Assembly (NCBI RefSeq): GCF_032118995.1
Contig: NC_092652.1
Coordinates: 15,816,336 to 15,871,067 of the forward strand
Source of the DNA: Asterias amurensis
Taxonomy: Eukaryota
Length of the DNA stretch: 54,732 bases
Reading direction: 5' to 3'
Position 1 is the stretch's first letter. Every line of letters begins with the position of its first letter. Shown piece by piece: positions 143 through 54,433 of this stretch. The notes under the pieces were generated by a model, which was not told the DNA's origin, searched no databases, and saw nothing but the letters and a program-made list of their open reading frames with translations. Both the position numbers and the translations under genes were made by a program.

Positions 143-225
143 TGACGCTGAAAACAATTTCTTCAAGCAGTTTCTTGTGGACATGAACAACCAGAACATC
201 AATGTACTTTACTTTGGCTTATCAG
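143..225 (+). CDS. exon; CTLD-A central segment (DAENNFFKQFLVDMNNQNINVLYFGLS), phase 2 in, phase 1 out
   Basis: AG acceptor 141-142, GT donor 226-227. Joins in frame to 1625 giving YFGLSDVAKDDELRWVDG, a WIGL.D...W.DG CTLD core. No ORF-track support. Confidence 0.55.
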
Positions 226-287
226 GTTGGTTGATTAGACATTCTAAACTGAGCTTAGTCTCAATTACATGATTGTAGCTAATGTAT

Positions 288-480
288 CTTATTGACCGAA
301 TTCACCTGACGCCATCATCAGAATGATCTTAGATGCGCCATACTGGTGGGCAATGTTACTGTGCATTATTCAGCAAAGTGCGCATTTGTATTTCCCACCA
401 AAATGGTGAGCGTGGCACAGTCACCGCATGTGACGTGCATGCAAGGGGTCAATACCCCCACCACACCAAACTCGTTCTCA
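288..480 (+). repeat. interspersed repeat, also present inverted at 8560-8760
   Basis: About 80% reverse-complement similarity between the two copies. Accounts for ORFs 333..596 and 8532..8714. Confidence 0.55.
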
Positions 481-744
481 CTACAAATTTAGTCTTGGTG
501 GAAGATGTTGCTATTGACACTATCACTCAACTTTTGCGGTCGCTTGCTCCCTCCTTGCGCAACGCACACTACAAATACTATCATCTTGCACCATGACTAC
601 ATTTTCAGAACATAGTGAGGACGAGATCAGTGTGATCGGGTATACGAATTGTGATATCACATCCGGATCAAAACAAAGTTTCTAAGGTTTTTTACTTCAT
701 GTTGTGTCACATAAATTGTGGATACTGTTCCAGGACTTGAATTC

Positions 745-1010
745 TACCACAGCATTACAGCAATAGACCCTTCCCATGAAATATGCTAATTACATTCCTG
801 CATGCGTACAGACCCTGTTGGTTGGCAATCGCCATAGAGTTGTGCACTAAGCAGACGCGCAATCGCGTCTGCGTCACGCACGCATTAGCCGTGTACAAAA
901 CAGCGCGATGTTCCCTCATTTTACCAACCAAAACGTTAGTGCGCACGCGCTATGTGCAATTTACATATTTCATGGGAAGGGTCTATTGCTGTGATGACCG
1001 TTACAGTTTT
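745..1010. mobile_element. MITE-like element with 25-bp TIR (caatagacccttcccatgaaatatg), CpG-rich interior
   Basis: 760-784 is the reverse complement of 960-984. Accounts for ORFs 755..946(-) and 783..1034. Confidence 0.6.
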
Positions 1011-1340
1011 ACAAATTTTACATTTTCCTCATAGAAGTGGCCATTTCCAGAAGAAAAATTTACTTGCCCTTTCAAGAACGAATTTCAAGACCTGCTGGTC
1101 TTTGACAAATTACCAATGATGTGCTGTATGATATTAAAAATATGTATTGTCATTGGGTTGGGACTGTCCCTTGAGCAAGAAAACCAACATGTACATATAG
1201 GGAGTTTGGATAGTCAATTGCTAAAACCTATTTTCCACGAGGTGAATGTCTCTTTTCCCCGAGTGTGACTGGGCAACAGAGGGCGCCCGTGATAGCCAAA
1301 CAGTTCGCAAGGTGTGTCTGTGCCACAATTCCAACAGTTA

Positions 1341-1527
1341 AGCCCGGTTTATACTTCATGCGAATGCGAATGCGAAGCGAATTTGACGTTAATTTGGCAT
1401 CACAAATTTCGCAGCGATATTCACAAGTGCGTAGAGCGGAGTTGAACTGCTGCGATTTATTCGTTACGAAGTTGTGACGTCAACATTCGCTTCGCATGCA
1501 TTTGCAGGAAGTATGAACCGGGCTTTA
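1341..1527. mobile_element. MITE family F (TIR aagcccggttcatacttcctgcgaatgcga)
   Basis: agcccggtttatacttcatgcgaatgcgaa ... ttcgcatgcatttgcaggaagtatgaaccgggcttt. Accounts for ORF 1265..1477. Confidence 0.75.
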
Positions 1528-1624
1528 CACCCAGAAAGAAGGTATGTGTGCATGACAAACTGTGTTCCAGCAAATACTACAGTGTAATTAAAATAGTTGC
1601 ATATTCATTTTTCTCACTATACAG

Positions 1625-1750
1625 ATGTGGCAAAGGATGATGAATTGAGATGGGTGGATGGCTTGAAGCTGGGTTCATACAAGCATTGGAATCAAGGCAT
1701 GACACCAACATTAACCCCAAAAGTTAAAGACTGCGGCTACATTACTACAG
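1625..1750 (+). CDS. exon; CTLD-A (DVAKDDELRWVDGLKLGSYKHWNQGMTPTLTPKVKDCGYITT), phase 1 to 1
   Basis: Acceptor ttctcactatacag at 1623-1624, donor gtatac at 1751. Same frame as ORF 1597..1854. Confidence 0.8.
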
Positions 1751-1865
1751 GTATACTGATGAAGTTTACAGCTCGGAAGGCTGGGGTTTATAGTAACCAT
1801 GGTTCCAAGAAATTAGACTTTCAAAATGACTATTTCAATTTTGTGATCAAATAATTTAGTAATGA

Positions 1866-1867
1866 TA

Positions 1868-1911
<44 letters not shown>
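1866..1911. repeat. (TAA)n microsatellite
   Basis: aataataataataataataataataataataataataataa. Produces the poly-Y run in ORF 1830..2012(-). Confidence 0.95.
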
Positions 1912-2149
1912 GACTTGTAATGCGCACATATCCACCCTGCTGGGTGTTCAAGGCGCAGTAAAACCAAAACAAGACAAAAACAAAACAACACTAAGAAAAA
2001 CAGACACAACAAAATTAGTCATTGAAAACCTGTGACATAAGATAAGTTTTGCGGTACAAACACAAGATAAACTGACTCATGTTAAAATAGTGTAAATTGC
2101 CATTGGGTTCGGTACCCTACCAGTGCAAAGTGTGTCACCATCCAAAACA

Positions 2150-2345
2150 TCTGGAGTCATGACCAAATGGTTTAGAGCATCAAAATAAAGTTTTAGTGGA
2201 TAAGTCATCGGAGTGTGGGTTTGAACGCCGGTCATGACACTTGTGTCCATGTTGAGCAAGATGGTTTAATATAATTGGCTCTCTTCACCCAGAGGTATAC
2301 ATGGGTACCTGTAAGAGTTAAATGAAAATGGCTTTTATTTTGACC
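2150..2345 (+). mobile_element. tRNA-derived SINE (family 1; Ser/Leu-like head, body ..ttgagcaagat..cacccaggggtataaatgggtacc..)
   Basis: B-box-like ggagtgtgggtttgaacgccggtcatgacacttgtg. Body similarity to other copies. Confidence 0.6.
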
Positions 2346-2734
2346 TTTTGATAAAAGAATCCTTCTAGTATTATAAAATATTCATCTATAATAGTTTTTC
2401 GTTGTTGAAATGCGTGAAGGCCTATGTTTTATGATTCATTATTGTGATATTTGGACATGAAACAAACAAACAAAACAAATCTAATGACATATTTCTCTCT
2501 GAAAAAGTCACTTGTAAGCAAAAATGAAGAGACCCATGTACACCATTTTAATGTATCTTCACAGGTGCTTCATATGAACACATTTAGTTTCTCAACATTT
2601 AAATGTTTATGCGATACAAAAAAAATTGGATTGGACAAATTTGCTCTGTCATGTTTGTTTTACCGTGGTAACAAATTGTGAAGTTTGATTGGTCGAGAAC
2701 CAATCACGTGATGTGATACAAAATAGTATGTACT

Positions 2735-2790
2735 ATGGCTAAGGATGCGTGCTACGCATTATGCGTAGAGCACATCCTTAGCCATGGTAG
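2735..2790. repeat. 54-bp palindrome
   Basis: ctatggctaaggatgcgtgctacgcattatgcgtagagcacatccttagccatgg. Confidence 0.8.
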
Positions 2791-3102
2791 GCCTTGCCTG
2801 GGTTTTTTGTTTACCAGTGTACAAAACCTTGATCGTTCCCACCAATGGTCCCACCAGCGCTTTGTACAAAACAGCCGCGTGTCAAGGGAACAGTGAATAA
2901 TTGTTTTTTGTTCGAACAACTGTTCGTCTGCTTATTAAATGCATACTCCGTCATTTGAAGATGACAGCAGAACTTCGAGCAATGTTGCCAAGGTATAACA
3001 AAACAATTGTTTCACGCTGTGACTGGGGTCCATGGGTTTTGTACACCCTCGAGGGAAAATGGTACCTTTGGAGAAAAATTGTATGTTAACAAAATGATTA
3101 TT

Positions 3103-3472
3103 AAAGGAACACGTTGCCTTGGATCGGTCAGGTTGGTCTTTGAAAAGCGTCTGTAACCGTTTGTTTATAAAATGTATACGGGTTGAAAGATATTTTAAAA
3201 GTAGAATATAATGATCCACACTAGTATCACTCGAAATTGCGTGATTTTCCTTTCACCTCGTCAACTAACACCGTCCGCCATTTATGGGAGTCAAATTTTT
3301 GACTCCCATAAATGGCCGACCATGTTAGTTTGCAAAGTAAAAGGAAAACCACGCAATTTCGAGGCAAATTTGTGTGGATCATTGTATTCTACAGTATACA
3401 TTTTATAACAAACGGTTATAAACGCTTTTCAAAAACTAACTCGACCGATCCAAGGCAACGTGTTCCTTTAAC
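3103..3472. mobile_element. MITE family A (TIR aggaacacgttgccttggatcg), full copy flanked by TTAA
   Basis: Terminal inverted repeats at both ends. Internal palindrome ccatttatgggagtcaaatttttgactcccataaatgg. TTAA on both flanks. Confidence 0.8.
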
Positions 3473-3570
3473 ATTATGAATCAGGTATGATGTCAAAGAC
3501 TTGGCGCCTCACATGCAGGTTTTTTTTATTTCCCCAGTTTTATATTTAAATAATAAGTCTTTAATTTCAG

Positions 3571-3645
3571 GAGATTCAAATGATGCATTCTGGAACGTGG
3601 GTGACTGTTTCATGCTTGGTGCATTCATTTGCAAGATTAATGCGG
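3571..3645 (+). CDS. exon; CTLD-A C-terminus (GDSNDAFWNVGDCFMLGAFICKINAG)
   Basis: Acceptor ttaatttcag, donor gtaggt at 3646. WNxxDC...FIC CTLD terminus. In frame with the 1750 exon. Confidence 0.8.
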
Positions 3646-4009
3646 GTAGGTACCTTTTTTTGTTGCCATTCACATGTAGCTTTTCTTTGTCAGTTCAAGC
3701 TTTTTGTATTTGCTTTTGTGGTTGTTGTTGTTCTTTTTGGTTTTGTGGTTTTCTTGTAATGTTTTAAACAGTTGTATACATTTTTGCCTATGAACTATTT
3801 TTAATTGTAAAGGTACTTTGTGGCCTGCTTGGCTGTCAGTGCAATCAATTTAAAAAAAACAGAACAATAATTAACCCATGTACAGGTCTTGAATCTGAAA
3901 TTTACAGTCCCTGTTTGCATGTGGCAAACCTAGCATAGTACCATATGAGTGCATGTACACTGGATGGAACATCCAAAGCTTTTATTATGTCACCCACTGT
4001 AGGCCTAAA

Positions 4010-4360
4010 GTGGGTGTGGTGGCCGAGCGGTCTAGGTCACCAGACCCAAGCTCTGGTGCTGTCGGCAGCAGAGTGTGGGTTCCAATCCCGGTCATAACAC
4101 TTGTGCCTTGAACATGTGTTGAACAAGGCACTTATAACCATAGTTGCTTTGTAAAACATTTGGAGTGTAGTGCATTCTGCTCTACCAGCCAGACTCTTAG
4201 TGTATGATACTCATGCCTATCCTTATAGACTGTGAAAGGGATAGCTTTGTTTCAGCCCCAAGAGTAGGTGGCAACGTGCCCCTTGTGACAGCTAAGTGTA
4301 GCCCTCACCTAGAAATGGTCTTCTATGGCCTTGTGATGTTAGGCAGTCTCCAAAAAAAGT
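4010..4360 (+). mobile_element. tRNA-derived SINE (family 5: same head, different body)
   Basis: Head ggtggccgagcggtctaggtcacc...cagagtgtgggttccaatcccggtcataacacttgtgcc. Body shared with 18316-18484 and 38485-38575. Confidence 0.65.
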
Positions 4361-5370: not shown

Positions 5371-5403
5371 GTACCAAAGTGACACCAGTGCCACCCGGAG
5401 TTG
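5371..5403 (+). CDS. 33-nt linker exon (GTKVTPVPPGV), symmetric phase 1-1
   Basis: Acceptor aatgtttcag, donor gtaagt at 5404. Pro/Thr-rich inter-CTLD linker. Confidence 0.7.
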
Positions 5404-6499: not shown

Positions 6500-6661
6500 T
6501 GGACGGTTCTTGTGAAAATTCGAAGTGGGACTTGCATGGTGATTACTGTTACAAGGTTACGACCTCCCAGTCCACCTGGGACTCTGCAAGTTCAGAGTGT
6601 AAAAAACTAGGTGCAGAGCTAGCCAGTATACACAATGATGGCACACAATCATATATGTCAG
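6500..6661 (+). CDS. exon; CTLD-B N-terminal part (VDGSCENSKWDLHGDYCYKVT...ECKKLGAELASIHNDGTQSYMS)
   Basis: Acceptor cctaaacag at 6498-6499, donor gtaaca at 6662. ORF 6499..6717 has the same frame. CTLD start signature C..W...CY.F...W..A...C...GA.LASI. Confidence 0.85.
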
Positions 6662-7162
6662 GTAACAAAATCTCTACTATGATCTCCCATTATGAAACTG
6701 TACCTCAGATGAACTAGACATCACATTTCTATGGCACTTTGACCTCTGACATCACTAGAAAACCATAACATGATTCGCGCGCATACCTCCAGGCAAAACT
6801 GACTACGCGTCTTTTTGCCCGGCGAAACATGACGTATACAGTGTTTTGTCAACAGGGCGGTTTGAATGTAAACATTGGTCACATCGTCTATAGATGGATT
6901 GCAATAGACGCCATCGGCAGCCATATTTGATGAACTGTGAAGAGCTACCGTTGGCTGAGAGTCGCACACAGTGCGTACATTCACTTTTCCATTGTCTTAC
7001 ATCAAAGATGGAGGTCAATGACGCATATTGCAACCCATCTACATGTATAGCAATGCGGGAGATGCCAGGAGTGACAAAATGGACATTTCATCACTGTTTA
7101 CAAAGGGCAAACTTAGCAACTGCAGCCAAACTTTCATGTTTGGAGAAAACCACATTCGAAGT

Positions 7163-7540
7163 TAAAGGAACATTACAGAATTGGTTTTGCTAGCAAAAAA
7201 GTTGCTGGCAGTGTCAGCACTCTATGTAATCCACAATATACATAAACTGACAAACCTGTAGAAGTTTGAGATCGATCAGCCATCTGGGTCACGAGAGAAT
7301 AGTGACAAAACGATTACAAATTCTGCATTGCATCAATGCCAAAACAAAAATTAATAAAACGCTCACTGAGCGATAAACTCAAAACGCGAAATTAGATTAT
7401 TTATTTCTCATCAAATATGAAATTTCAGACAGAAATATTTCAAGAGATGTTTTCTACTATCATCATTAGACCGTGTAAGTTTTATGTAAATCTGTGATCT
7501 TCACGATTTTTGTTTCTTACCAATTCTGTAACGTTCCTAT
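7163..7540. mobile_element. MITE family G (TIR aaaggaacattacagaattgg; internally related to family B)
   Basis: gTTAAaggaacattacagaattggtttt ... accaattctgtaacgttcct. Accounts for part of ORF 6894..7193. Confidence 0.65.
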
Positions 7541-7628
7541 TCTTGAAATAATTGTTTCAGACACTGTTTGCAAAGAAAAATGTTGACATTTAAAACTTGT
7601 GCAACACTTGTTCCTTTATTTCTTACAG

Positions 7629-7717
7629 TGCGAATGAATACTCTCAGCTCGTGGATGTGGATAGGCCTGAACGACAAAGCTGTTGAAGGGACCTACGTTT
7701 GGACAGACGGTTCAAGT
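7629..7717 (+). CDS. exon; CTLD-B middle (RMNTLSSWMWIGLNDKAVEGTYVWTDGSS)
   Basis: Acceptor tttcttacag, donor gtaagt at 7718. WIGLND...W.W.DGS motif. ORF 7568..7786. Confidence 0.85.
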
Positions 7718-8559
7718 GTAAGTATTCGCATCCAATCTTACATCCGTTTATCTATGATAGAATGTCTAGGAACTGCAGCTGTTTAGCGAACAAATTGTCA
7801 TTTGCTAAGCAAAAAGTAGCGGGGCACCATTTGACTCGCATGGCACTTTGTCTGCTTTCCTGCATCTGTTAAGCAGTATAGTGATTTGTGCTTAATAAAA
7901 CAAAAATTAAGATATAAAGGTTGATTTATTTTTTTGTCTAAGTGCCGTTTGTCCCTGTCTGTTTACCAGTGGTGTCAAAATTAATAAGTGAATGGTTCAA
8001 AAATCAATATAGCAGCCAAAAAAAATAAAAAATTTGTCTGTTCCTCTGCTTGCCCCTCCCTCAAATAAAAGTGTTTGGTTACATCACCCCTGTTAACCAA
8101 TCAAATAAATCCAGCCACCTTGATTGCATGCCAGTTAATACAAACAATGTTCCCCTCAGTTCAACATGCTTTTTAACTCTTTCAAAAAGGTCACTTTTCC
8201 AGCCTTCCATTTTGGTGACCTTAAAAATGTTACCTAACAGAATGCCCTTCCACAATGTCAGTTGTTGATATAGCTATGATAGCATTACAAGAATTTCTCA
8301 TTAACTAAATCTCCAATTCATAATACTCACTGGTTTCACTGTGACCCTTATCAGCTGCTATCAGGGAAGTAGTAATATAAACTTTCACCCTTGAGCCCAC
8401 TTCCCCAAGGCAAGTGATCCTGACCCATGGGCCTTCTTGCCGGTGTCTCGAAATGCAGAAGAGCAGAGAGAAAATTTTGTTCTTTCTTATTAATTTCTCA
8501 TTTAATTTTTAAAGATATTATTAGTAGATTTTCATGATTCAAAGCTAGTTAACACCGTT

Positions 8560-8760
8560 TCACAATTAACTCCTTGCACGCACGTCACACGCGGCGACTG
8601 TGCCACGCTCACCATACATGTAGGCTTGCGTGTAAACACCGCGTCGCCTAAAATGTGCACTTCACTGAGTAACGCACAGTGACATTGCCTACCAAAAGAT
8701 AAAGGGCGCATCAAAGATTATTCTGAGGATGACGCCAGGTGAATTGGGTCAATACAAGAA
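8560..8760 (-). repeat. inverted copy of the repeat at 288-480
   Basis: Sequence similarity. Confidence 0.55.
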
Positions 8761-8894
8761 CCTGGGAAATTCTACAGGTTGTGTCAGTTGTTACAGTAAT
8801 TGGTGCCCTTAACCATGAGTTTATACCTCTGGAACTTTTGATCAGATGAGAAATATCTTGCAGAAAACTGCTCTTTCCCAAACCAGCGATCGAA

Positions 8895-9135
8895 CCAACC
8901 TCGAGTTTGTCATAGGCAACCTCAGGTCAGCTTTTATTGGGTGATTCAAGTAATGATGGGAGGGCAGAGATGGTTCTTGTGATTGATTTAGCTGAGTAGC
9001 GTTTATTTGTTGCTCAAGGCTGTTTACTCCCCAGGTAGCTAAGATGGTTTTAGGAGGTAATATAATATATCAAGTGCTTTGAGACACCCTTTGATTGTGA
9101 AAAGCGCTATATAAATCTGACTATTATTATTATTA
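8895..9135 (+). mobile_element. SINE family 1, 3-prime portion with (TTA)n tail
   Basis: Similarity to 17330-17440 and 48040-48205. Tail aaagcgctatataaatctgactattattattatt. Confidence 0.6.
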
Positions 9136-9154
9136 AGCTCTTGTATGCCTTCAG

Positions 9155-9293
9155 TATGACTACAACAATTGGAGTCCTGGCCATCCCAAAACTGATGACT
9201 GTGTCGCCATGGTTTCTGGGGCAAATAACTACGGGCTCTGGAGAACGCGCCCTTGTACTAAGAATTATTACTACGTTTGCCAAAAAATGAAGC
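9155..9293 (+). CDS. exon; CTLD-B C-terminal part (YDYNNWSPGHPKTDDCVAMVSGANNYGLWRTRPCTKNYYYVCQKMK)
   Basis: Acceptor tgccttcag at 9152-9154, donor gtaagt at 9294. Y.NW...DC....W....C....VC pattern. No canonical Ca/sugar triad, so predicted non-sugar-binding. Confidence 0.85.
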
Positions 9294-9540: not shown

Positions 9541-9579
9541 TTCCTGGGCCTGGTGTAACCAATGCTCCTCCCCCTACAA
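9541..9579 (+). CDS. 39-nt linker exon (LPGPGVTNAPPPT), phase 1-1
   Basis: Acceptor ccctccccag, donor gtaagt at 9580. Confidence 0.7.
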
Positions 9580-10649: not shown

Positions 10650-10823
10650 TGAATTACTACGCACGATGTGGAAACGGTTGGGAGTACTACAAACCGTCTG
10701 ACCGCTGTTTCCTGTTTCGGCCATATGACTACAAGAACTGGTTCAATGCGCGCTACCAGTGCCGTGTAGAAGGAGGGGATCTTATGAGTCTATCAAACCC
10801 AGTTGATCAGACGTATGCCGCAA
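10650..10823 (+). CDS. exon; CTLD-C N-terminal part (NYYARCGNGWEYYKPSDRCFLF...QCRVEGGDLMSLSNPVDQTYAA)
   Basis: Acceptor tcatttcag at 10647-10649, donor gtaagt at 10824. ORF 10613..10852. Confidence 0.85.
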
Positions 10824-42796: not shown

Positions 42797-42924
42797 GTAA
42801 GTAGTAATAAGTTACATCCAGTAGTTATAATAATAATATCAAAATCTTATATAGCGCACGTATCTACCAAACAAGGTACTCAGCAAACACAAACTTTCAG
42901 AAAGATAGGTTATTGCAGTGATGA

Positions 42925-43385: not shown

Positions 43386-43532
43386 CTCTATCAGCTTTTT
43401 TCTACTACATGAATCTATGTTCTTACAAGCACTTAGGAATCCTACGCACTGCTTTCCTAGAAATGTGTGGCTACATTCAGATGAACCTTACAATGTTCAG
43501 CTTCATCAGCACTTGAATTTCATCTTTGTAGA

Positions 43533-43875: not shown

Positions 43876-44108
43876 TTTGAGAGGACAAGGCCATTTTCAT
43901 TTTCCCAAAGGGCATTTCCATAGGAAAGTCTCTCAGAATGTTATGATGGGCACCAAGGCCAAAACCAGGGCAACAGAACAGAATACATGGCCTCAGTAGT
44001 GGCCACTGTGTAATTCCAGGCCTATATTGAAAAAAAAATGTTTACTTTGTAATTATTATTTTTGTCACAATATAATGTTGTATACTGTGTCCTGTTTGTC
44101 TAACGAAG

Positions 44109-44214
44109 GTTGATACTGCTTGTGGAGTTTTGGTGAATGATCCATCATACCCTGGCAGATGGGACGATGTTGACTGCTCTGAACAACATGGCTACCTTTG
44201 CTACAAACCCTTGG
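44109..44214 (+). CDS. exon; CTLD-L C-terminus (VDTACGVLVNDPSYPGRWDDVDCSEQHGYLCYKPL)
   Basis: Acceptor ctgtttgtctaacgaag (AG 44107-44108), donor gtaaga at 44215. Phase fit with neighbours. Acceptor context is weaker than the others. Confidence 0.7.
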
Positions 44215-44473
44215 GTAAGATACAAACTTGTTTTTAGAAAAAAAATGTCTTTATAAAGGTTTTTCGCTAGTTCTGTTTCCCTCCTGTGCCCAATTTCAAG
44301 TTAACAAGCAGGACAGTTATTTTTTAGGACAGAGAAGTCTCCTGAATTCCGAAAATTTTATTCCGCGGTAGTAGACAAACTCTTCTGAACTTCAAAAGAC
44401 TACTTCCCGGTAGTAGAATATAAAACAAGACAAGTTCTCACAAGAACATAATCTACCAAGCAAGTAGATACAC

Positions 44474-44757
44474 ACATGGTGTATACTCGGTACTTTCCCG
44501 AGTTCTGTGAAAAAATTTCACATGCATATTACTCTAGCGGGATTGGATTCCACGACTCTTGCAATTCTAGAGCAGTGTCTTACCAACTAGACTACTTTGC
44601 CTAGTTACTAGAGGCAGTTGGAATCCTATATTTTGGCTGCGGGTACCGGGCAATCTCAGTAGTCTAGTTGGTAAGACACTGCTCTAGAATTGCAAGATTT
44701 GTGGGTTCGAATCCCACCCGAGAAAGTACTGAGAGTATACAGTGCTATGGGTAAAAA
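44474..44757. mobile_element. inverted dimer of SINE family 4 forming a ~120-bp-arm hairpin
   Basis: Arm 44474-44600 is the reverse complement of arm 44660-44757 (..gcaattctagagcagtgtcttaccaactagact..). A-rich tail at 44750-44771. Confidence 0.65.
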
Positions 44758-44820
44758 AAAAAAAAAAAAATGTTTTTATCCCCAATGAAAATTTAACTTT
44801 TTTTATTACTTTGCTTGCAG

Positions 44821-45071
44821 ATCCAGCACTGCCCACTCAAGAACCCTCTTTTGGCGGCCTGTGCCCAGCCAACGGATTCCTCCAATATGGCACTGATTGC
44901 TTCAAACTAATGACTACTCCGATGTCATTCATTGATGCTAAGAAGGCCTGCGAAGGACAGACAGCTACCCTGGCCTCTGTCCGGGATGGCTTCTCGGAAG
45001 CGTTCATCGTGGCCAACATGCTGTACAAGAATAATTTAGACAGCGCTTGGATTGGCTTGACAATAAATGAT
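44821..45071 (+). CDS. exon; linker plus CTLD-M N-terminal part (DPALPTQEPSFGGLCPANGFLQYGTDCFKLMTTPMSFIDAKKACEGQTATLASVRDGFSEAFIVANMLYKNNLDSAWIGLTIND)
   Basis: Acceptor ttactttgcttgcag, donor gtatgt at 45072. ORF 44742..45194 reads through into a MITE. Confidence 0.85.
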
Positions 45072-45136
45072 GTATGTTGTTTATATTTCTCACATTTATT
45101 TCTGCTTTTGTTTTGCTTAACGGGAAGTTACACGTT

Positions 45137-45490
45137 TGGGATTGTCAAAGACCAGTCTTCTCACTTGGTGTATCTCAACATAAGCATACAATAACAAGCC
45201 TGTGAAAATTTGGGCTCAATTGGTCATCGAAGTTGCAAGAAAATGAAGAAAGAAAAAACACCCTTGTTGGACGAAATTGTGTGCTTTTAGATAGGAATAA
45301 AAGACTTCTAGCTAGAAGTCTGTTATTATTTTAGTGAGAAATTGCCTCTTTCTAAAAACTACGTTACTTCAGAGGGAGTCGTTTCCCATAATGTTTTATA
45401 CTATCAACAGCTCTCCAATGCTTGTTACAAGTAAGTTTTTTAAGTTAATATTTGTTTTGAGTAATTACCAAACGTGTACCTTCCCTTTAA
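45137..45490 (+). mobile_element. MITE family B copy, 5-prime TIR truncated
   Basis: Starts 66 bp after the donor at 45072. ORF 44742..45194 reads into it. Confidence 0.7.
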
Positions 45491-45644
45491 TTTGTTTTTA
45501 TATTGTTCTTTTGTATTTGGTGCTGTTGCCCTAATTTACTATAGTCTTCACCAGGATACAGCACCATGCGCTTAGAAACATAATCGTAAGCGTGGCATAA
45601 ATTTATATTATTACTATTGTTGTTATGAAGTAGGATGCTCTTGA

Positions 45645-45815
45645 AAGCATGGTCCAAATTTCCTGCGAATGCGATACGAATTTTGACATCAAAAAATTTG
45701 CAAACAAATAATTCTCATCAGTTGACATGTGCTGAACTCCTGTGAAACCTTTCGCTGCGAAAACAGCCCAGTGACGCCAAAATTTGCATTGCAAGAAGTA
45801 TGAACGGCGCTTAAT
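45645..45815. mobile_element. MITE family F copy, degenerate
   Basis: tcctgcgaatgcgatacgaattttgacatc ... ttgcattgcaagaagtatgaacggcgctt. Confidence 0.55.
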
Positions 45816-46275
45816 ACTATAATAGAACAAGACCGTGTGCCCCCTCCCGCCACACTCCAAAAACCAGCAGGTCTGATACTTTGAATCAAATTTGATCTTC
45901 TGAATTTGTCGAAATCCATCTCCCTAAAACTGCAATGGGACACTATACCTGTATTGTACATGTACTGAGGGTTTCTTTTGGGGGGAGGGGTTAGTTGTTT
46001 GGGGGAGGGTGTGGTAGTTCTTTTATTCTATCTATTTTTAATGAGTTATTTCAACAGTAGTTTAGCTGTTTGGGCACTCCACCCTGAACAAATCGTTTTG
46101 GGGTTTGTTTGTTTGTTTGTTTTGGTTTTTTTTTTGTATTTCTTTTTTCTTCTTTACTGTTATATGTTTGTTTCTCCATTATCAAATGATACAAAAAAAA
46201 CAATTTTATGTGAGTTCTTTTTTCCAAATTTTATGTGAATTCTTATTTCTTTTTGCACACTACCGTTACATACAA

Positions 46276-46675
46276 CATTGTACATGTACAAGTGTGCCGT
46301 TATAAGTTATACAAGTTATTTTGTTTGTCTTTTATACTATAGGCCTATTATGTGTGTTTCTCCATACCAAATGATATGAAAAGCAAGCTAAACATGAGAA
46401 TTTTGTTTTGCAGAATAACGGTACATTCAAGTGGATTGATTGTTGGCCATTGATGTTTACTAGTTGGGCTGATTACGAACATTGTACAAGTGTACTGTTA
46501 TAAGTTATACAAGTTATTTTGTTTGTCTTTTATACTATAGGCCTATTATGTGTGTTTCTCCATACCAAATGATATGAAAAGCAAGCTAAACATGAGAATT
46601 TTGTTTTGCAGAATACCGGTACATTTAAGTGGATTGATCGTTGGCCATTGATGTTTACAAGCTGGGCTGATTTCG
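46276..46675 (+). repeat. ~205-bp tandem duplication spanning the intron 3-prime end, the acceptor and the first 67 nt of exon 46612
   Basis: 46276-46480 and 46481-46675 are near-identical. The junction is at ttacgaac|attgtacaag. Confidence 0.85.
46414..46480 (+). pseudogene. duplicated decoy acceptor plus truncated pseudo-exon (NNGTFKWIDCWPLMFTSWADYEH...), copy of the start of exon 46612-46783
   Basis: 205-bp tandem duplication of 46276-46480 and 46481-46675. First copy has no donor and runs into a stop (..VLL*). Confidence 0.6.
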
Positions 46676-46783
46676 AACCAAGTGAAGAAGACGGAGAGGG
46701 TTGCGTAGTACAGACCAACAGTGCTGACTGGGATTCTATCAAATGTACATTGAAACGTGCATTTGTCTGTCATACAACAGAAA
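46612..46783 (+). CDS. exon; CTLD-M C-terminal part with EPS...WDS (NTGTFKWIDRWPLMFTSWADFEPSEEDGEGCVVQTNSADWDSIKCTLKRAFVCHTTE)
   Basis: Acceptor ttttgttttgcag (second copy of a duplicated acceptor), donor gtaagt at 46784. ORF 46606..46851. Confidence 0.8.
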
Positions 46784-47339
46784 GTAAGTTTATTATTACT
46801 AGTGGTTTATTAAATATACTGCAATACTTAAGCATGCAGCTTTTCAGCTGATTTCCTCTATTTCTTTTTAAAACAGTGCCATAGAAAACTGAAAAACACT
46901 ACAAAAGATAAGTGTGGTTGGTTGTTTTCTCTCCTTTTTTTTTGCAATAAGAAAGTGAAATGTCTGAATACAGCGACTAAAAGCCAAAATGTGCACTTTA
47001 CAAAAGCCATACATATTATTAAAAACATTAGCAGTAAATTACAGATACACACGGAAATGAAAAATAGTTATTTAGAGATATATAAAACACTTTTTTATGA
47101 TAGTACAAAACTCAACAATTTGGACTAAATAAGAATCCAGTCATTAAGAGCAACTATAAATATAAATATTAATAGTAAACTTGCGGGTACAACCAATTTA
47201 TATTTATAGTTGCTCTTATTCTCCACACCATGCAAAGCTTCAAACATCATTTAATTCAGTCATTGCTCATAATCTTGGAATGTCAACAAGATGAATATGT
47301 GCCATCAACAAAAACATGTTGTCAAGACAAACATTAGAA

Positions 47340-47400
47340 TTACATGGTGGCAGTGGCATCTGTCGCCCCTGGCCGTGGTCGCCCCTGGCCTTGGTCGCCC
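47340..47400. repeat. 18-bp tandem repeat x3 (gtcgcccctggcc[gt]tg)
   Basis: ctgtcgcccctggccgtggtcgcccctggccttggtcgcccctggccttggtc. Confidence 0.8.
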
Positions 47401-47528
47401 CTGGCCTTGGTCTTGTTTGCCCCTTCAAAAGTTTTCTTAGACTTTAAGATTCTGCAATAAAAAAGTGCCCTTGGCAAAATGAAAATAGCCTTGCCCTCTC
47501 AACGATGAAGTTCCAGGCCTAAAACTTC

Positions 47529-47702
47529 CACTGGACACCTTTGGTAATTGTCAAAGACCAGTATTCTTACTGTTTCTCAACATAAGCAAAAAAAAAAAAA
47601 AAATCTGTGAAATGTTTTACTCAATTGGTCGTCGATATTGCAAGAGAATATTGAAATAAAAAAACACCGTTGTTGCACAAATTGTTGTGCTTTCAGATGC
47701 CT
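47529..47702 (+). mobile_element. MITE family B copy, 3-prime truncated
   Basis: 5-prime TIR cactggacacctttggtaattgtcaaagacc plus internal region. Confidence 0.65.
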
Positions 47703-47884
47703 AAAAAGGGGCTTCATAAGGCCTGGAGTATTTTACTATTTCGCAAGTAGAAATTAGGTTTCACGTTTTACAAAATATTCCACTTGCCAGCAATTTATTA
47801 ACATTCAACCCTAACGGCAGACTAAAAATGTACAGAGCATTTGTTTCTTGCCCATGCTATGATAATTTGTTTGTTTATTATGGG

Positions 47885-48210
47885 GTGTCGTGGCTGAGCG
47901 GATAAGAGCACCGAATTCAAGCTCTGCTGATTCTGTTCAGCAGTGTGTGGGTTCGAATCCCGGTCGTGACACTTTTGTCCCTGAGCAAGACACTTCACTA
48001 TAATTGCTTTTCTCCACCTAGGGGTAAACAGGTACCTGTGAGGGCAGAGTTGGTTCTTGTGATTGATTAGCCTTGGTTGCGCTACATATTTAGCGGCACA
48101 GGCTGTATACTCCCCAGGGAGCTGAGATGATTTAAGGAATGATTTAAGGCCCAGTGACCAGGGGTAACAATGTTGAAGTGCTATATAAGAAGCCACTATT
48201 ATTATTATTG
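47885..48210 (+). mobile_element. SINE family 1 full copy
   Basis: Head gtcgtggctgagcggataagagcaccg...gtgtgggttcgaatcccggtcgtgacac. The minus-strand 178-aa ORF 47822..48358 lies entirely over this element. Confidence 0.75.
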
Positions 48211-48288
48211 AAGAGTTTTCATTGTTTTGTTTTTTCATTTTAGTCAGTTTCATAAACAATAACTTACCTCTTGTTTTCTCGTGGACAG

Positions 48289-48549
48289 TGGTTCCCCCAA
48301 CACCGCCCTCGTTTATTCCTGGCAACTGTCCCCCAAAATGGATAGGGTTCGGTGACAACTGCTACATGTTTGAAGCAGAGTTGCAGTACGTGTCATGGTG
48401 GGAGGCGTCTTATTTCTGCGAGAAAACCTTTGACAATTCGCACATCTTGAACATCCACAGTAGAGGGGAGAATGCATTTGTCAAGAGGGTAGCTGCAGAG
48501 AAGTATGGGTACTATGGAGTGTGGCTGGGCTTGACACGTAACACAACTG
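48289..48549 (+). CDS. exon; linker plus CTLD-N N-terminal part (VPPTPPSFIPGNCPPKWIGFGDNCYMFEAELQYVSWWEASYFCEKTFDNSHILNIHSRGENAFVKRVAAEKYGYYGVWLGLTRNTT)
   Basis: Acceptor ttttctcgtggacag, donor gtaagt at 48550. ORF 48222..48557. Confidence 0.85.
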
Positions 48550-48949
48550 GTAAGTAAGCGTGATCTTTCATATTTGGTTGAAGATTAAGCTTAAGTATGC
48601 CTTTATATTTTTTAATCATCCAATGGGGGACTTTGCGGACGCGTGGTGGCAGCAGACTTACAGGTAAAATACAATTTACCTGGTAAGTCTGCTGCCACCT
48701 AAACATTCCGAAGTCTCCCATTGGTTTAATCTTATGTAGTTGTAGATATATTTGTGTGAGATACAGTGTTTAATCCAGATAAAAACCTTTGGCAGTTGAA
48801 GAAAAGTTTATTTATGATGATAGAGCTTGGGAGTATGCAGTGCTAACACACATCAGTGTATGTGGGTTAAAATCAAAATTATTATTCTTTATCCCCGATG
48901 CAAATTTCCATCTATTAAATCACTGGCCTTGTTTCATTTCCCTCTGTAG

Positions 48950-49135
48950 CTGTAGACAAGCAGGAGTTTCTCTGGAACGACGGTCAGCCGCTGGATTACA
49001 CAAACTGGAAAGTAGGAGAACCAGACAACGAGCTAGATTCCGAGGACTGTGTACGCATAATGACATCGGAGTACGGCAAATGGGAAGACACTGGATGCGC
49101 CTCTTACTCACAGTTAGTCTGCAAGAGACCCAAAG
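48950..49135 (+). CDS. exon; CTLD-N C-terminal part with EPD...WED (AVDKQEFLWNDGQPLDYTNWKVGEPDNELDSEDCVRIMTSEYGKWEDTGCASYSQLVCKRPK)
   Basis: Acceptor tttccctctgtag, donor gtacgt at 49136. Confidence 0.85.
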
Positions 49136-50226
49136 GTACGTACACAATGCCTTCCGGTATAGTCTGTGTATAGGAACCTCATCAAAATGGTAAATAATAA
49201 TAATAATAATACCGACGATGACTAGAGCAAGCTAGTCGAAACATTGAGACCCAATTAAAAACTCACTTCACGGTAGTGAAGTTAAATCCACTAAAAGCTA
49301 GTCTCAGCCTATTTCCTACCTTCCCCGGCCCAGGTAGTAGTTAAAAAGCAGATCTTTTCAGAACTGAGAAGTCTTCCGATATCTGAAAAAATCTGCTCTG
49401 TGGTAGTAAAAATTAAAGCAAAAACAATTCTCAAAAGAACATAATCTACCAAGCAAGGAGATACACACATGATGTCGACACCAAACCAGCTCTTTTTTCA
49501 GAGCCAACACTCACCTTAAAAGATTTGCACATGGTTGTACCCGCAAGTTTACTATTTATTTATAGTTTCTTCTTATAATCTAATGTTTATTGAAACCTCA
49601 CCATGTAATGCGTCAATTTCCATACTCCATAAAATGGTAATTAATAACAATAAAACTAGGTTCTTATATGTTAAGGAGAATATACGAGAAAGTGTAGTTT
49701 TGTGAATAGAATGTACGAGCCGAAGGCCAGTACATTGTAATCCCGAATCTACACTTTAGTGTCTATTCTCTGACTTACACTATTTCCCCCATTGGTTATG
49801 TAACAGTTTCAAGGGAATGATTTTTCTAAACTGGATTATGTTTGTAAATTGAAAGATAACATATTGTCAGCTATGTTTTTTTGCACTTCATGCCATCTTT
49901 CAGTTTGGGACAGTAATTTTCAAGTTGAACTATTTACTTAAGTTTGTAATGAACCTACACTCAACTGTTGATTATTTTTACGAATCTACACTTAAGTGTA
50001 GACTACAGTTAAGTTTAAGTTCATGTATCAGACCCCTGAAGGGGCGTATTAAAGCGCTCGGTATTTTTTCCTGCAAGGTATTTCTAGCTACATTTGAACT
50101 ATGATGCCTATAATTCCTTTACCAATTCCTTATTTCATTAACTTTGTGAGTATTTACAGTCCCTACCTTTTCCATGCTATTTTTTATATTGTATTCTAAA
50201 TGGATGTTTCTGCTTTTTCCCAACAG

Positions 50227-50238
50227 ACAAAAGCTCAG
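50227..50238 (+). CDS. candidate 12-nt micro-exon (DKSS), symmetric phase 1-1, possibly an optional cassette
   Basis: Strong acceptor ctgctttttcccaacag and consensus donor cag|gtgagt at 50239. Frame is preserved with or without it. Confidence 0.4.
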
Positions 50239-50378
50239 GTGAGTTAAAATCTCTTTGATCCTTTAATGTTTTCTTTAAGATCATTAACAAACAAGGCCAC
50301 ATACATTAACAGTGTTTTTGTTAATAAGGGATTCAAACTGTATACAGGCACATATTCTTGTGGTAGAACAAACACTCC

Positions 50379-50722
50379 TTAAAGGAACACGTTGCCATGG
50401 ATCGGACGAGTTGGTCTATAAAAAGCGTTTGTAAACGTTTTTTATAAAATGCATATGGTTGGAAAGATGTTTTAAAAGTAGAATCAATGATCCACACAAG
50501 TTTGCCTCAAAAGTGCGTGGTTTTCCTTTTACTGCGCGAACTAACACGGTCGGTGTTAGTCGACGAGGTAAAAGGAAAACCGTGCAATTTCGAGGCATGT
50601 TTGTGTGGGTTATTGTATTAAACTATTACAACATCTTCCTTCCCATATGCATTTTATAAAAAATAGTTACAAACGCTTTTCAAAGACCAACTCGACCGAT
50701 CCAAGGCAACATGTTCCTTTAA
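50379..50722. mobile_element. MITE family A copy with TTAA flanks
   Basis: TIRs aggaacacgttgccatggatcg and ggatcggtcgagttggtc..atgttcct. Confidence 0.75.
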
Positions 50723-50765
50723 CATTTCATACCACCGGTGACCTCACATGAAATACATAATGGGC

Positions 50766-50940
50766 CTGCAGCCGATTTCACAAAACGCTAGGATCAATCC
50801 TATCTCTAGTTAGGACAAGTAACTCAACCTAACTTAGGATGGGTTCAAGGTGTCCTAACATCTATGGATACAGAACTTAACTCGTCCTAACTCCTAAGAT
50901 AAATCCTAAGTTAGGAAGAGTTTTGAAATCAATGGCAGGC
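50766..50940. mobile_element. MITE family D copy
   Basis: ctgcagccgatttcacaaaacgctagg ... ttttgaaatcaatggcaggc. Confidence 0.7.
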
Positions 50941-51005
50941 TTGTTTTTACTTTAACCCAAACTCACATTTTGGACAACACAGAGTTTAATGTTTATTAGA
51001 GCTGC

Positions 51006-51352
51006 TTAAAGGGACCATTGCCTTGGATTGTTGGTTTATGAAAAGCATTTGTAAACCGTTTGTTTTAAAAGTAGAATATAGTCCACACAAATATGCCTAA
51101 AAATTGCGTGGTTTTCCTTTTACTTTGAGAACTAATATGGCGAGTCAGACATTTTGTGAAGTCAAATAGACTACACAAATTAAAGTGCTGTGTAATTGTT
51201 CACAACGTATAAGAAAAACAGGAAATTTCGAGGCATGTTTGTGTGGATCATTATATTCTACTATTAAAACATCTTTCTAATCATATACATTTCATAACAG
51301 TTACGCACCCTTTTCATGAACCAACTCGCCTGATCCAAGGCAACTTGTCCCT
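51006..51352. mobile_element. MITE family A copy with degenerate 3-prime TIR
   Basis: gcTTAAagggaccattgccttggattg plus internal similarity. Confidence 0.65.
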
Positions 51353-51729
51353 CCAAGCTCAACAGTTGGCAAAGCACAATACAGTAAAGATTATACAAGC
51401 TTAAAAACCATGTCACACTAGCGGGATGCCGTGCTTCGCTAGAAATCTTTATGCTTAAAATGCCGCGTAGCGTTGTGTAGTGGGGTGGGGGGGGGGTAAG
51501 AAAACAATGGCGGCCCCATGCGATTTGAGCGTCATTATAGTACCATCTGTGATTAGTATCCTGATCTTTTCTACAGAGCAGCGAAAACTGCTAAGCAAAA
51601 GTTTCTTCTTAAGCAGCAGAGAATTTGAAATTGAGCTTAGCAGAGTTTTGATTCCCGTGCACTAAAACCATTTGCCACCTATACCCCCAATGTCAAACTG
51701 AATATATCTGTTGTTTTTTCATTCCGAAG

Positions 51730-51885
51730 TTGGCGGTTGTGAGAAAGATTGGTACCGGATGAACAACTTATGTTATGGAGCATTTGGCAGCAACGAGCCC
51801 GAATCATTAACGTGGACTGAAGCTTATAAGTCTTGCGAGAATAAGGGTGGCAACTTAGCTACTGTCTATGGTCAGAATGTCCTAT
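51730..51885 (+). CDS. exon; CTLD-O N-terminal part (VGGCEKDWYRMNNLCYGAFGSNEPESLTWTEAYKSCENKGGNLATVYGQNVL)
   Basis: Acceptor ttttttcattccgaag, donor gtaagt at 51886. ORF 51711..51932. Confidence 0.85.
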
Positions 51886-51957
51886 GTAAGTCACTTATGT
51901 CTGCAGTTTTCTTGTATTTTTGCTTTTGTTGACATATTAAATTAGCTCTAGCCATAT

Positions 51958-52143
51958 GCTCGGTTCATACTTCCTGCGAATGCGATGTGAATTTGACGTG
52001 AATTTGTTGTCACAACTCTCCCCTTGCAACGATATTCGCAAGTGAGTTGAGCAGAGTTGAACTGCTGCGAATTATTTGTTGCTAATTTGTGACATCAACA
52101 TTCGCTTTGCATCCGCATTCGCTGGAAGGGATGAGCCGGGCTT
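51958..52143. mobile_element. MITE family F copy
   Basis: gctcggttcatacttcctgcgaatgcgatg ... cattcgctggaagggatgagccgggctt. Confidence 0.7.
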
Positions 52144-52685
52144 AAGTCTTGAAGTTTAAGTTTTGTTTCCTTCTGCATTATTTCTATGTAAGCAGGCAGT
52201 GCAAGTCTCGCACGTGCACACATTTCTGGGACCAAGTTGGTCCAAACCACATTGAGTTTAACAATATTGGGTTCATAATATGTCCAGTCTAGGCCGATTT
52301 TTTCACTTTTCATCTTATCTCTGTACTTGCTTTCCTCAGAGTGTAATTCTTTTAGTTAGGCTGTTTCTGTTATCTGTGTGATATAGAAAGGTTTGCGGTC
52401 ACACCATGTAATGATAATCTCTAAATGAGTTGGGATGGTTTTGAAAAGGGCCGTTGGTTTCAACTCAACGTTTTGATCAGAATGCTCTGGTTATCTTCTT
52501 TTCTCTTAAGAAGACGATCGGAAGCATACTGGTCAAAACATCGAGTTGAAACCACTGGTTCCTTTCAGAACCACCCCAACTCATTTAGAGATTACCATTT
52601 CATGTTGTATCCACAAACCTTTCTGTATCGTGTTTCCACCATACAAAGTTTCAAATCCTACTTATCTGTGTGATATATTTGTGGA

Positions 52686-53090
52686 AGTGTCGTGACCGAG
52701 CGGTTAAGAGCACCGAAATCAAACTCTGGTGCTTCTGATGAGCAAAGTGTGGGTTCGAATCCCCAGTTATGACACTTGTGTTCTTAAGCAAGACAATGAA
52801 CCATTGCTTCGGATGGGATGTAAAGCCATTGGTGCCATGTGTGGGTGCCATGTGTTGTGTAAAGCATGAAAAAGGACCCAGTGCACTTATCGAAAAGAGA
52901 AGGGGTTAGCCCCGGTGTTCCTGGCTGTGGGTGCTGTATGCGCCGTAGCATGTACATAACGGGTCTCACTATTCGTCACTGCAATAACCTATCTTTCTAA
53001 AAGTTTGTGTATATACCCAGTGCCGTGAGTACCTTGTTTGGTAGATACGTGCACTATATAAGACTTTGATATTATTATATTATTATTTTT
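52686..53090 (+). mobile_element. SINE family 2 full copy
   Basis: Head gtcgtgaccgagcggttaagagcaccg...gtgtgggttcgaatccccagttatgacac. Tail cactatataagactttgatattattat. Confidence 0.7.
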
Positions 53091-53105
53091 TGTCCAACTT
53101 TCCAG

Positions 53106-53242
53106 CTTTGCTAGAAGCCATGATGTTCATGATGAGACGTACCAATGCATGGATTGGATTGAATAAGATTGATGGTTCATATGAATGGGCAGATGGAACT
53201 CCCATGCAGTTTGAACACTGGACTGAAAACTTCCCTGATAAG
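53106..53242 (+). CDS. exon; CTLD-O middle (SLLEAMMFMMRRTNAWIGLNKIDGSYEWADGTPMQFEHWTENFPDK)
   Basis: Acceptor ccaactttccag, donor gtatgt at 53243. ORF 53066..53284. Confidence 0.8.
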
Positions 53243-53749
53243 GTATGTGTGCATGGCAAGTTAATATCAAGCTCAATCAGTTAAGCGCACTGGACACTTT
53301 TGGTAAACCTTGCGTGTGACGCTAAACATACCTTCATCTGCCAGACGGCAGACATTGGGAAACCAATGTTGGCAGGTCTGCGAGGTGGGGTGGTTAAGTG
53401 TCCAAAACGTCACCACGAAATATTTCAGATTTGTTTTTCAACACCTGGTTGCTTCTCTGAGGAATACGTAATCTGAGAAACGTTTACTGACAGTAACGCT
53501 TCTCAGGTTCAACCTGTTTGCCATAAAACAAAACTGTGTTTCTGGTTCACATGCAAGTATCACTGTTTACAGGTTTACTCAGGCTTGTGAGCTACAGTGA
53601 TTCACTTATGCGGCATCCTTCATTGCCAGAAATATATAATAGTAGAATCAGACCAATACTTACCTCCAGATCCCCTGGGTTATTTTCATGTGAATTCTTT
53701 CCTTCTTGTTGCCCCTAACCAAAGGTTGCCTTGTTTGGGACACACTTGC

Positions 53750-54129
53750 TGAAAGGCGCTGGACACCTTTGGTAATTTTCAAAGACCGGTCTTCTCACTT
53801 GGTGTATCTTAACATAAGCATACAATAACAAATCTGTGGATATTTCAGCTCAATTGGCTGTCAAAGTTGTGAGATAAGACAAAACACCCTTGTCACAAAA
53901 AGTTGTGTGCTTTCAGATGCTTAATTTCGACACCTCACAATCTAGTTCTGAGATCCCGAAATCAAGTTCGAGGAAAATTACTTCTTTCTCAAAAAACTAC
54001 ATTTCTTCAGAGGGAGCCGTTTCTCACAATGTATTATACTACATGTATCAACAGCTCTCCATTCCTCTATACCAAGGTTTTGCTATTAATTATTTTGAGC
54101 AATTACCAATAGTGTCCAATGCCTTTTAA
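53750..54129 (+). mobile_element. MITE family B full copy. An orphan TIR fragment of the same family lies at 53283-53310
   Basis: aaaggcgctggacacctttggtaatt ... caattaccaatagtgtccaatgccTTTTAAc. Accounts for ORFs 53890..54129 and 53903..54112. Confidence 0.75.
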
Positions 54130-54321
54130 CAAAATAATAACAAGTACAATTTCAAACTTTGCATGGTGGAAATATGATATGGAAAGGTTTGTGATAACAC
54201 CATGTAATGACCATCTTAACCACCCCAACTCATTTAGAAAATAATAACAATCGAATGAATTGTTTTGCCTCACAAAAGTCATTTCACTCTTGTTTACTTA
54301 TCATTTTTTTTTTTACCAAAG

Positions 54322-54433
54322 GACCCTGACAATATGTGTGTGATGATTGTTAACAACCAAGTCAAGCCAGGATTCTGGAAGAACCTACCGTGTGAAGGGC
54401 CGAGAGAGGGATACTTCTGCCAAAAGCCAACCG
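54322..54433 (+). CDS. exon; CTLD-O C-terminus (DPDNMCVMIVNNQVKPGFWKNLPCEGPREGYFCQKPT). The gene continues beyond the window
   Basis: Acceptor ttttttttttaccaaag, donor gtaagt at 54434. Ends in phase 1, so more exons are expected downstream. Confidence 0.8.

Follow-up and report, generated by a model that had tools for sequence, protein, structure and literature searches.

The stretch of Asterias amurensis DNA analysed here (RefSeq assembly GCF_032118995.1, contig NC_092652.1, positions 15,816,336 to 15,871,067 of the forward strand; 54,732 nucleotides, hereafter the window) very probably represents the interior of a single plus-strand gene that encodes a giant type I membrane protein composed of many C-type lectin-like domains (hereafter CTLDs), which we infer to be an endocytic receptor. 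The window has a G+C content of 39% and contains no long open reading frames (ORFs) but many short ones on both strands, as expected of intron-rich eukaryotic DNA. The hallmark motifs of CTLDs (WIG, WxDG, WND, and F[IV]C) are strongly enriched on the plus strand, where they occur in short open segments throughout the window. Jackhmmer searches with three seeds that represented the typical CTLD exon types, one seed per type, yielded 14, 14, and 12 significant matches in plus-strand stop-to-stop segments (47 rows), whereas the same three seeds gave no match on the minus strand of the window.

To define the exons, we used our own exon-chaining program, which combines codon log-odds trained on the jackhmmer matches with generic splice-site matrices, and obtained a chain of 45 exons that is in frame from position 1625 to 54433. 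The curated model is a corrected form of this chain, supplemented with the micro-exons proposed in an earlier note on the window, which had been made from the sequence alone, and with exon 143-225; it uses the acceptor at 3571 and retains the program's 12-nt exon at 50227-50238. It comprises 47 plus-strand exons between 143 and 54433, with a total length of 6677 nt (2225 amino acids) and no stop codon. The reading frame is preserved at all 46 junctions, none of which calls for an initiation or stop codon. Each of the 47 acceptors is AG (CAG in 40 cases), and the donors are GT in 46 cases, including 22 GTAAGT sequences, and GC in one case, after exon 25313-25354. Introns are 247-1986 nt in length (median, 1056 nt), and phase 1, which is customary for shuffled extracellular modules, is found at 32 of the 47 exon 3' ends. 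The only GC-AG intron of the window has the donor CAG/GCAAGT, which lies in the typical AG/GCAAGT context.

The features of the window are as follows, with CTLDs lettered in the order of the window and numbered as in the full-length protein; L001 is an orthologous contig described below.

143-3645, plus strand: CTLD A (CTLD 3), C-terminal two-thirds only, exons 1-3 (143-225, 1625-1750, 3571-3645); non-canonical sugar site without EPN or QPD and with WNV
5371-5403, plus strand: micro-exon 4 (33 nt, phase 1-1), linker GTKVTPVPPGV
6500-9293, plus strand: CTLD B (CTLD 4), exons 5-7 (6500-6661, 7629-7717, 9155-9293); non-canonical GHP and WRT
9541-9579, plus strand: micro-exon 8 (39 nt, phase 1-1), linker LPGPGVTNAPPPT
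10650-13199, plus strand: CTLD C (CTLD 5), exons 9-11 (10650-10823, 11982-12098, 13074-13199); QPD and WND, canonical galactose-type
13812-14057, plus strand: PAN/apple domain following the fifth CTLD, single exon 12 (246 nt, phase 1-1); PAN_1, E value 2.2e-13
15297-17068, plus strand: CTLD D (CTLD 6), exons 13-15 (15297-15515, 16214-16371, 16961-17068); EPN and WND, canonical mannose-type; exon 15 also holds a linker and the initial residues of CTLD E
17060-20702, plus strand: CTLD E (CTLD 7), end of exon 15, exons 16-17 (19055-19170, 19670-19818), and start of exon 18 (20491-20702); QPD and WTD; exon 18 also holds a linker and the start of CTLD F and is conserved in L001 (1-168)
20661-24321, plus strand: CTLD F (CTLD 8), end of exon 18 and exons 19-21 (21745-21872, 22337-22395, 24151-24321); EPN and WND, canonical; all exons conserved in L001
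25313-25354, plus strand: micro-exon 22 (42 nt, phase 1-1), linker GESVITTPAPTIPT
27284-36848, plus strand: block G-H-I-J (CTLDs 9-12), exons 23-32 (27284-27459, 27970-28037, 29152-29255, 29661-29927, 30469-30614, 31796-31907, 32584-32828, 33646-33826, 35606-35866, 36681-36848); CTLDs G and H joined within exon 26; QPD/WRD in G, canonical QPD/WND in H, no motif in I, EPD/WFD in J; each exon conserved in L001
37772-37807, plus strand: micro-exon 33 (36 nt, phase 1-1), linker LPLFTTEAPFTK
39170-49135, plus strand: block K-L-M-N (CTLDs 13-16), exons 34-43 (39170-39339, 39697-39770, 40881-40975, 41640-41900, 42648-42796, 44109-44214, 44821-45071, 46612-46783, 48289-48549, 48950-49135); an old copy of block G-H-I-J with the same exon pattern; QPN/WGD, QPS/WDD, EPS/WDS, and EPD/WED, respectively
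50227-50238, plus strand: micro-exon 44 (12 nt, phase 1-1), residues DKSS
51730-54433, plus strand: CTLD O (CTLD 17), exons 45-47 (51730-51885, 53106-53242, 54322-54433); non-canonical FPD and WKN; initial CTLD of a two-CTLD unit, itself repeated downstream of the window

When translated, the 47 exons give a sequence identical to residues 343-2567 of two RefSeq proteins of Asterias amurensis, XP_071789139.1 ('uncharacterized protein isoform X3', 2933 amino acids) and XP_071789137.1 (isoform X1, 3633 amino acids); a full-length query made with the model before two corrections had retrieved XP_071789139.1 at 99% identity. The 47 exons and consistent phases that the earlier note had obtained by hand splicing are thus reproduced exactly by the public annotation, including the micro-exons of 33-42 nt and that of 12 nt. 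The RefSeq protein extends 342 residues upstream and at least 366 residues downstream of the window, in accordance with the note's view that both ends of the gene lie outside. Isoforms X1-X3 (XP_071789137.1, XP_071789138.1, and XP_071789139.1) belong to the same gene. X1 and X3 do not differ inside the window, and the isoforms differ only outside it or, in the case of X2, by an internal start. Although the database name conveys no function, RefSeq already contains the gene, and the family to which it belongs is annotated widely, if loosely.

Several candidate splice sites and exons were rejected. The acceptor at 3538, which the program had chosen for exon 3, was discarded because the RefSeq protein needs 3571. 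Candidate exon 4003-4074 is the open frame of a tRNA-Leu-like repeat and is absent from the RefSeq match, and candidate exon 53352-53384 proved spurious on inspection and by the RefSeq match. A FIC-like motif within 53285-53473, considered as an alternative last exon of CTLD O, is intronic and lies behind the strong AAG/GTATGT donor of exon 46; this open segment includes ACDAKHTFICQT, a sequence resembling the end of a CTLD, and does not occur in the RefSeq protein. No Pro/Thr-rich linker exon was found in 49136-51729, where the 12-nt exon 50227-50238 was needed instead. This exon (DKSS) was picked by the exon-chaining program and is required for the exact RefSeq match. Its splice signals are good, and the RefSeq models of A. 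amurensis and A. rubens (P0124) both contain it, suggesting that transcript data support those models. An all-against-all BLASTP comparison of six-frame segments was uninformative for exons, because dispersed intronic repeats match every frame on both strands.

Pfam Lectin_C was detected in every spliced piece, at 108-160 bits per two-domain piece compared with a cut-off of 22.6, and the protein belongs by profile score to the C-type lectin-like superfamily (PF00059). The profile search delimited 15 CTLDs (A to O) in the window, CTLD A lacking its first third, which agrees with the approximately 15 tandem CTLDs counted in the earlier note. As delimited, 12 of the 14 complete CTLDs contain six cysteines, with eight in CTLD C and five in CTLD I. 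The long-form cysteine framework, with its extra N-terminal pair, is present together with the WIGL-type core, and a WIGL-like motif aligns in all 15 CTLDs. Both canonical sugar motifs are found in only four of them, namely CTLDs C and H (QPD/WND) and CTLDs D and F (EPN/WND), and the motifs of the remaining 11 are partly or wholly degenerate.

The full-length proteins contain 19 (X3) or 24 (X1) Lectin_C stretches and one PAN_1, and the spliced translation of the window likewise gave the repeated Lectin_C and single PAN_1 matches that the earlier note had predicted. An N-terminal signal peptide is immediately followed by the first CTLD, and the proteins end in a transmembrane (TM) helix and a tail of 39-43 residues with the sequence GFDNVLY, all of these ends being located outside the window. 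The 14 to 19 CTLDs after the PAN domain are joined by short Pro/Thr-rich linkers. Five micro-exon linkers are present in the window, and the four Pro/Thr-rich peptides that had been quoted as micro-exon linkers (5371-5403, 9541-9579, 25313-25354, and 37772-37807) are each flanked by proper splice sites. Pfam searches of XP_071789139.1 and XP_071789137.1 gave no match to ricin-B (PF00652, PF24562) or fibronectin type II (FN2; PF00040). Thus, of the 5' features that the earlier note had placed beyond the window, the signal peptide is indeed there, but a ricin-B or FN2 module is not found anywhere in the complete protein.

Domain counts in the retrieved relatives revealed an architecture that recurs in echinoderms and hemichordates, consisting of five CTLDs, a PAN domain, seven CTLDs, and a TM helix; the PAN domain follows CTLD 5 in P0002, P0125, and most echinoderm and hemichordate relatives. 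The ambulacrarian proteins annotated as 'macrophage mannose receptor 1-like' (for example, P0014 of Asterias rubens, P0017 of Lytechinus, P0013 of Anneissia, and P0021 of Glandiceps) share with the present protein the signal peptide, the PAN domain, the TM helix, and the GF[DE]NxxY motif. However, they contain 12 CTLDs, compared with 19 or 24 here, and their identity per domain is 30-47%. In a best-hit mapping, CTLDs 1-12 of X1 correspond to positions 1-12 of P0014 and, nearly as well, to those of P0017, P0013, and P0021, whereas CTLDs 13-16 map to CTLDs 9-12 of the relatives, and CTLDs 17-24 are repeated pairs that resemble CTLDs 10/7 and 11. The protein thus has all of the features of the ambulacrarian CTLD-PAN-CTLD group, whose members carry the annotation 'MRC1-like' or 'LY75-like': a PAN domain after CTLD 5, CTLDs that correspond one to one, and a C-terminal TM helix with GF[DE]NxxY.

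The orthologues from two other sea stars are LOC110978072 of Acanthaster planci (P0003) and 'lymphocyte antigen 75-like' of Patiria miniata (P0004), which show 52-53% identity at 100% query coverage and have the same order of CTLDs 1 to 18, the same PAN position, and the same tail motif. These two orthologues contain 17-18 CTLDs and a single C-terminal cassette, whereas Asterias X1 has six extra CTLDs and a second TM helix and tail. In the mapping to Acanthaster, CTLDs 1-18 correspond one to one, and CTLDs 19-24 fall back on CTLDs 17-18.

Within the window, the sequence identities of the domain pairs G-K, H-L, I-M, and J-N are 35, 40, 35, and 34%, respectively, each being the best or tied best in its row. 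The exon lengths of the two blocks run in parallel (176/68/104/267/146/112/245/181/261/168 nt in G-H-I-J and 170/74/95/261/149/106/251/172/261/186 nt in K-L-M-N). Together with the mapping of CTLDs 13-16 to CTLDs 9-12 of the relatives, these data indicate that CTLDs 13-16 are an old copy of CTLDs 9-12. The gene is very probably a paralogue, enlarged in sea stars, of a receptor with 12 domains (five CTLDs, a PAN domain, seven CTLDs, a TM helix, and a F[DE]NxxY tail): CTLDs 9-12 were duplicated as a block of ~10-12 kb, and two-domain units were subsequently appended C-terminally. The description of the gene as an expanded invertebrate-type receptor in the earlier note is borne out by this domain-by-domain mapping, which shows a 12-CTLD ancestral layout enlarged by block duplication. 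The F[DE]NxxY tail motif is common to echinoderm, hemichordate, mollusc, annelid, and crustacean relatives and to fish and bird MRC1. The ancestral layout of five CTLDs, PAN, and seven CTLDs, the duplication of the 9-12 block, and the FxNxxY tail provide a frame for choosing domains to test.

The protein resembles the vertebrate mannose receptor family (MRC1, MRC2/Endo180, PLA2R1, LY75/DEC-205, and avian FcRY) in its type I topology, its tandem long-form CTLDs with short linkers, the restriction of sugar motifs to a few CTLDs, and its short tail with an FxNxxY-type motif, and its best matches among solved structures are FcRY, PLA2R, DEC-205, MRC1, and Endo180. However, the vertebrate proteins have a ricin-B domain, an FN2 domain, and 8-10 CTLDs, whereas the present protein lacks both of the former, has an internal PAN domain, and contains 19-24 CTLDs. 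It is, therefore, not a member of the vertebrate mannose receptor family in the strict sense.

Beyond the gene structure, domain content, conservation, and homology that we observed, a function can be proposed. The mannose-receptor-like topology, the tandem CTLDs, the few sugar-competent domains, and the tail motif suggest that the protein most likely acts at the cell surface as an endocytic receptor and captures glycans or glycoproteins there. The CTLDs with intact Ca2+/sugar motifs (C and H of the galactose type, D and F of the mannose type) would bind glycans of microbes or of self-glycoproteins, and the degenerate CTLDs may serve as spacers or protein-binding modules. The tail motif would drive uptake through clathrin, the role that FENTLY has in the mannose receptor of vertebrates. 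Ligand binding, linker glycosylation, endocytosis, and the expressing cell type all belong to what we infer for this protein, and the pattern-recognition role and the O-glycosylated linker stalks suggested in the earlier note are likewise predictions from sequence. Large proteins of the Manila clam (RpMR1-13), which contain up to 14 CLECT domains and a TM region, have been discussed as pattern-recognition receptors (PMC12321717); these differ from the present protein in having FA58C, kringle, and other accessory domains, no PAN domain after CTLD 5, and fewer CTLDs. The gene, annotated but unstudied, belongs to a receptor family repeatedly listed as immune-responsive in echinoderms, for example in sea-star wasting.

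Several points weigh against the reading of the window as part of a single endocytic lectin receptor gene. As to function, the presence of both canonical motifs in only four of the 15 CTLDs means that lectin activity may be minor, single CTLDs are not clearly nearer to those of mannose receptors than to those of other CTLD groups (the best score is 60.5 bits for FcRY, compared with 68 bits for the CTLD of aggrecan), and our literature searches found no study of or experiment on this protein. As to structure, the RefSeq gene models are predictions, RefSeq isoform X2, which has no signal peptide, starts from an internal methionine located in exon 1 of the window, and the locus of A. rubens is annotated as four models of 299, 184, 2343, and 916 amino acids.

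A serious alternative is that the protein has a structural, adhesive, or matrix-binding role or serves as a receptor for protein ligands, in the manner of PLA2R and Endo180, rather than acting as a pattern-recognition receptor for glycans. The lack of a complete Ca2+/sugar motif pair in 11 of the 15 CTLDs would fit such a role, as would the retention at a fixed position of the PAN/apple domain, which often mediates protein-protein contacts, and the fact that the best full-length matches in the PDB, FcRY and PLA2R, bind proteins. Nevertheless, four CTLDs of the window retain EPN or QPD together with WND. In addition, although neither finding bears directly on the present protein, family members annotated as MRC1-like have been reported as immune genes whose expression is up-regulated when sea stars are exposed to wasting disease (10.1101/2025.07.05.662347), and Vibrio elicits a response from the clam proteins that are classed as mannose receptors (PMC12321717). 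We regard the protein-ligand or adhesive role as somewhat unlikely and retain the endocytic glycan or glycoprotein receptor as the preferred reading.

The structural points raise the question of whether the window contains several independent, shorter multi-CTLD genes in tandem, the long RefSeq models being read-through artefacts. The division of the orthologous A. rubens locus into four models would favour this possibility, and so would the two different TM and tail cassettes that X1 and X3 have downstream, which resemble two fused neighbouring paralogues. However, three of the four models from A. rubens (P0122, P0124, and P0126) begin at internal methionines and have no signal peptide, and P0122 ends by reading past the donor of exon 6 into the intron, a read-through that is also visible in the window. 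These features indicate that the fragments are truncated models rather than separate genes. In each of exons 15, 18, 26, and 37, the end of one CTLD is followed by a linker and by the beginning of another CTLD, so that the neighbouring CTLDs are physically joined at these borders. No linker exon contains a start methionine with a signal peptide, the frame is kept over 46 junctions without a stop, and the ten longest non-exonic ORFs on both strands gave no Pfam match. Furthermore, the orthologues of Acanthaster (2825 amino acids) and Patiria (2642 amino acids) each cover 100% of the query within a single protein that ends in a TM helix; the Acanthaster protein has a signal peptide, and the Patiria model is truncated at the N-terminus. 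A set of tandem genes is thus improbable, the question of one gene or two being confined to the region downstream of the window, and the earlier claim of one continuous gene is upheld by both the exact RefSeq match and these orthologues.

In that downstream region, two alternative C-terminal cassettes follow CTLD 18, as seen in the comparison of XP_071789137.1 with XP_071789139.1, and each contains a TM helix and a GFDNVLY tail. The first cassette consists of one CTLD and the TM helix, and the second of six CTLDs and the TM helix. The A. rubens annotation (XP_033624819.1 and XP_033625168.1) gives the distal cassette as a 916-amino-acid protein of its own, without a signal peptide. We tentatively suggest, as a possibility about which we are still doubtful, that an ancestral 12-domain receptor grew stepwise to 18 domains in the lineage of the sea stars and that one locus with two TM/tail cassettes may give rise to receptors with ectodomains of differing length. 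If the 24-domain transcript is real, it would rank with the longest known arrays of tandem CTLDs and would show how the number of domains is tuned in this class of receptors.

Evidence for selection was provided by a 15.8-kb contig of a metagenome assembly (ENA ERZ26222911, contig ctg867953; L001), which was reached via a protein matched by an 88-residue query. L001 is animal DNA and represents the orthologous stretch of this gene from a sea star, with shorter introns. Its exons are ~75-80% identical to those of the window, which is far below the value for the A. rubens orthologue (~97%) and far above that for Acanthaster and Patiria (~53%). The contig is collinear with positions 20538-39345 of the window, where only exons align (70-84% nucleotide identity) and where all 15 larger exons were recovered in L001 at the protein level. 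The stretch of micro-exon 22 with its donor (25321-25355) is 97% identical to L001 2306-2340. The differences between the window and L001 amount to 12.2, 12.1, and 45.5% at the first, second, and third codon positions, respectively, and this excess at the third position indicates purifying selection in the frame of the model. That the gene is a decaying pseudogene or non-functional duplicate, its open frame being left from a recent duplication, is hardly credible, because, although canonical sugar-binding motifs have been lost in most CTLDs and a recent 198-bp tandem duplication has made a decoy acceptor before exon 41, the 2225 codons in 47 exons contain no stop, the substitutions relative to L001 show the 12, 12, and 45% pattern at the three codon positions, even the 42-nt micro-exon is conserved at 97%, the domain order corresponds one to one with Acanthaster and Patiria (41-64% identity per domain), and the loss of sugar motifs in most CTLDs is also usual in functional vertebrate receptors such as MRC1, PLA2R, and DEC-205.

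The 198-bp tandem duplication (46301-46480 and 46499-46678) spans the final 113 nt of intron 40, the acceptor, and the initial 67 nt of exon 41. In its upstream copy, the ttttgcag acceptor is intact and creates a decoy exon start at 46414 that is soon followed by a stop codon. The copies differ by six mismatches, every one of them among the 67 exonic bases, and the 113 intronic bases are identical; the probability of this distribution would be ~0.003 if mismatches were evenly spread.

Several repeats and tRNA-like sequences are also present in the introns. A segment at 4013-4100 was called tRNA-Leu(CAA)-like by ARAGORN and was not called by Rfam at the gathering threshold. A dispersed repeat of ~250 nt occurs, always on the plus strand, at 12681-12883, 14537-14734, 18780-18965, and 38890-39120, and also in L001 (14469-14701). 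Its 3' part is tRNA-Asn(GTT)-like at 18875-18947 and 39032-39104 (Rfam tRNA, 61 and 49 bits, respectively). The repeat may be a tRNA-derived short interspersed element, although its tRNA-like part is located at the 3' rather than the 5' side. These two tRNA-like elements and a third at 44653-44725 precede the acceptors of exons 16, 34, and 40 by 108, 66, and 96 nt, respectively, in the sense orientation and are thus nearer to 3' splice sites than would be expected of random positions in introns of ~1 kb (rough chance, ~0.02).

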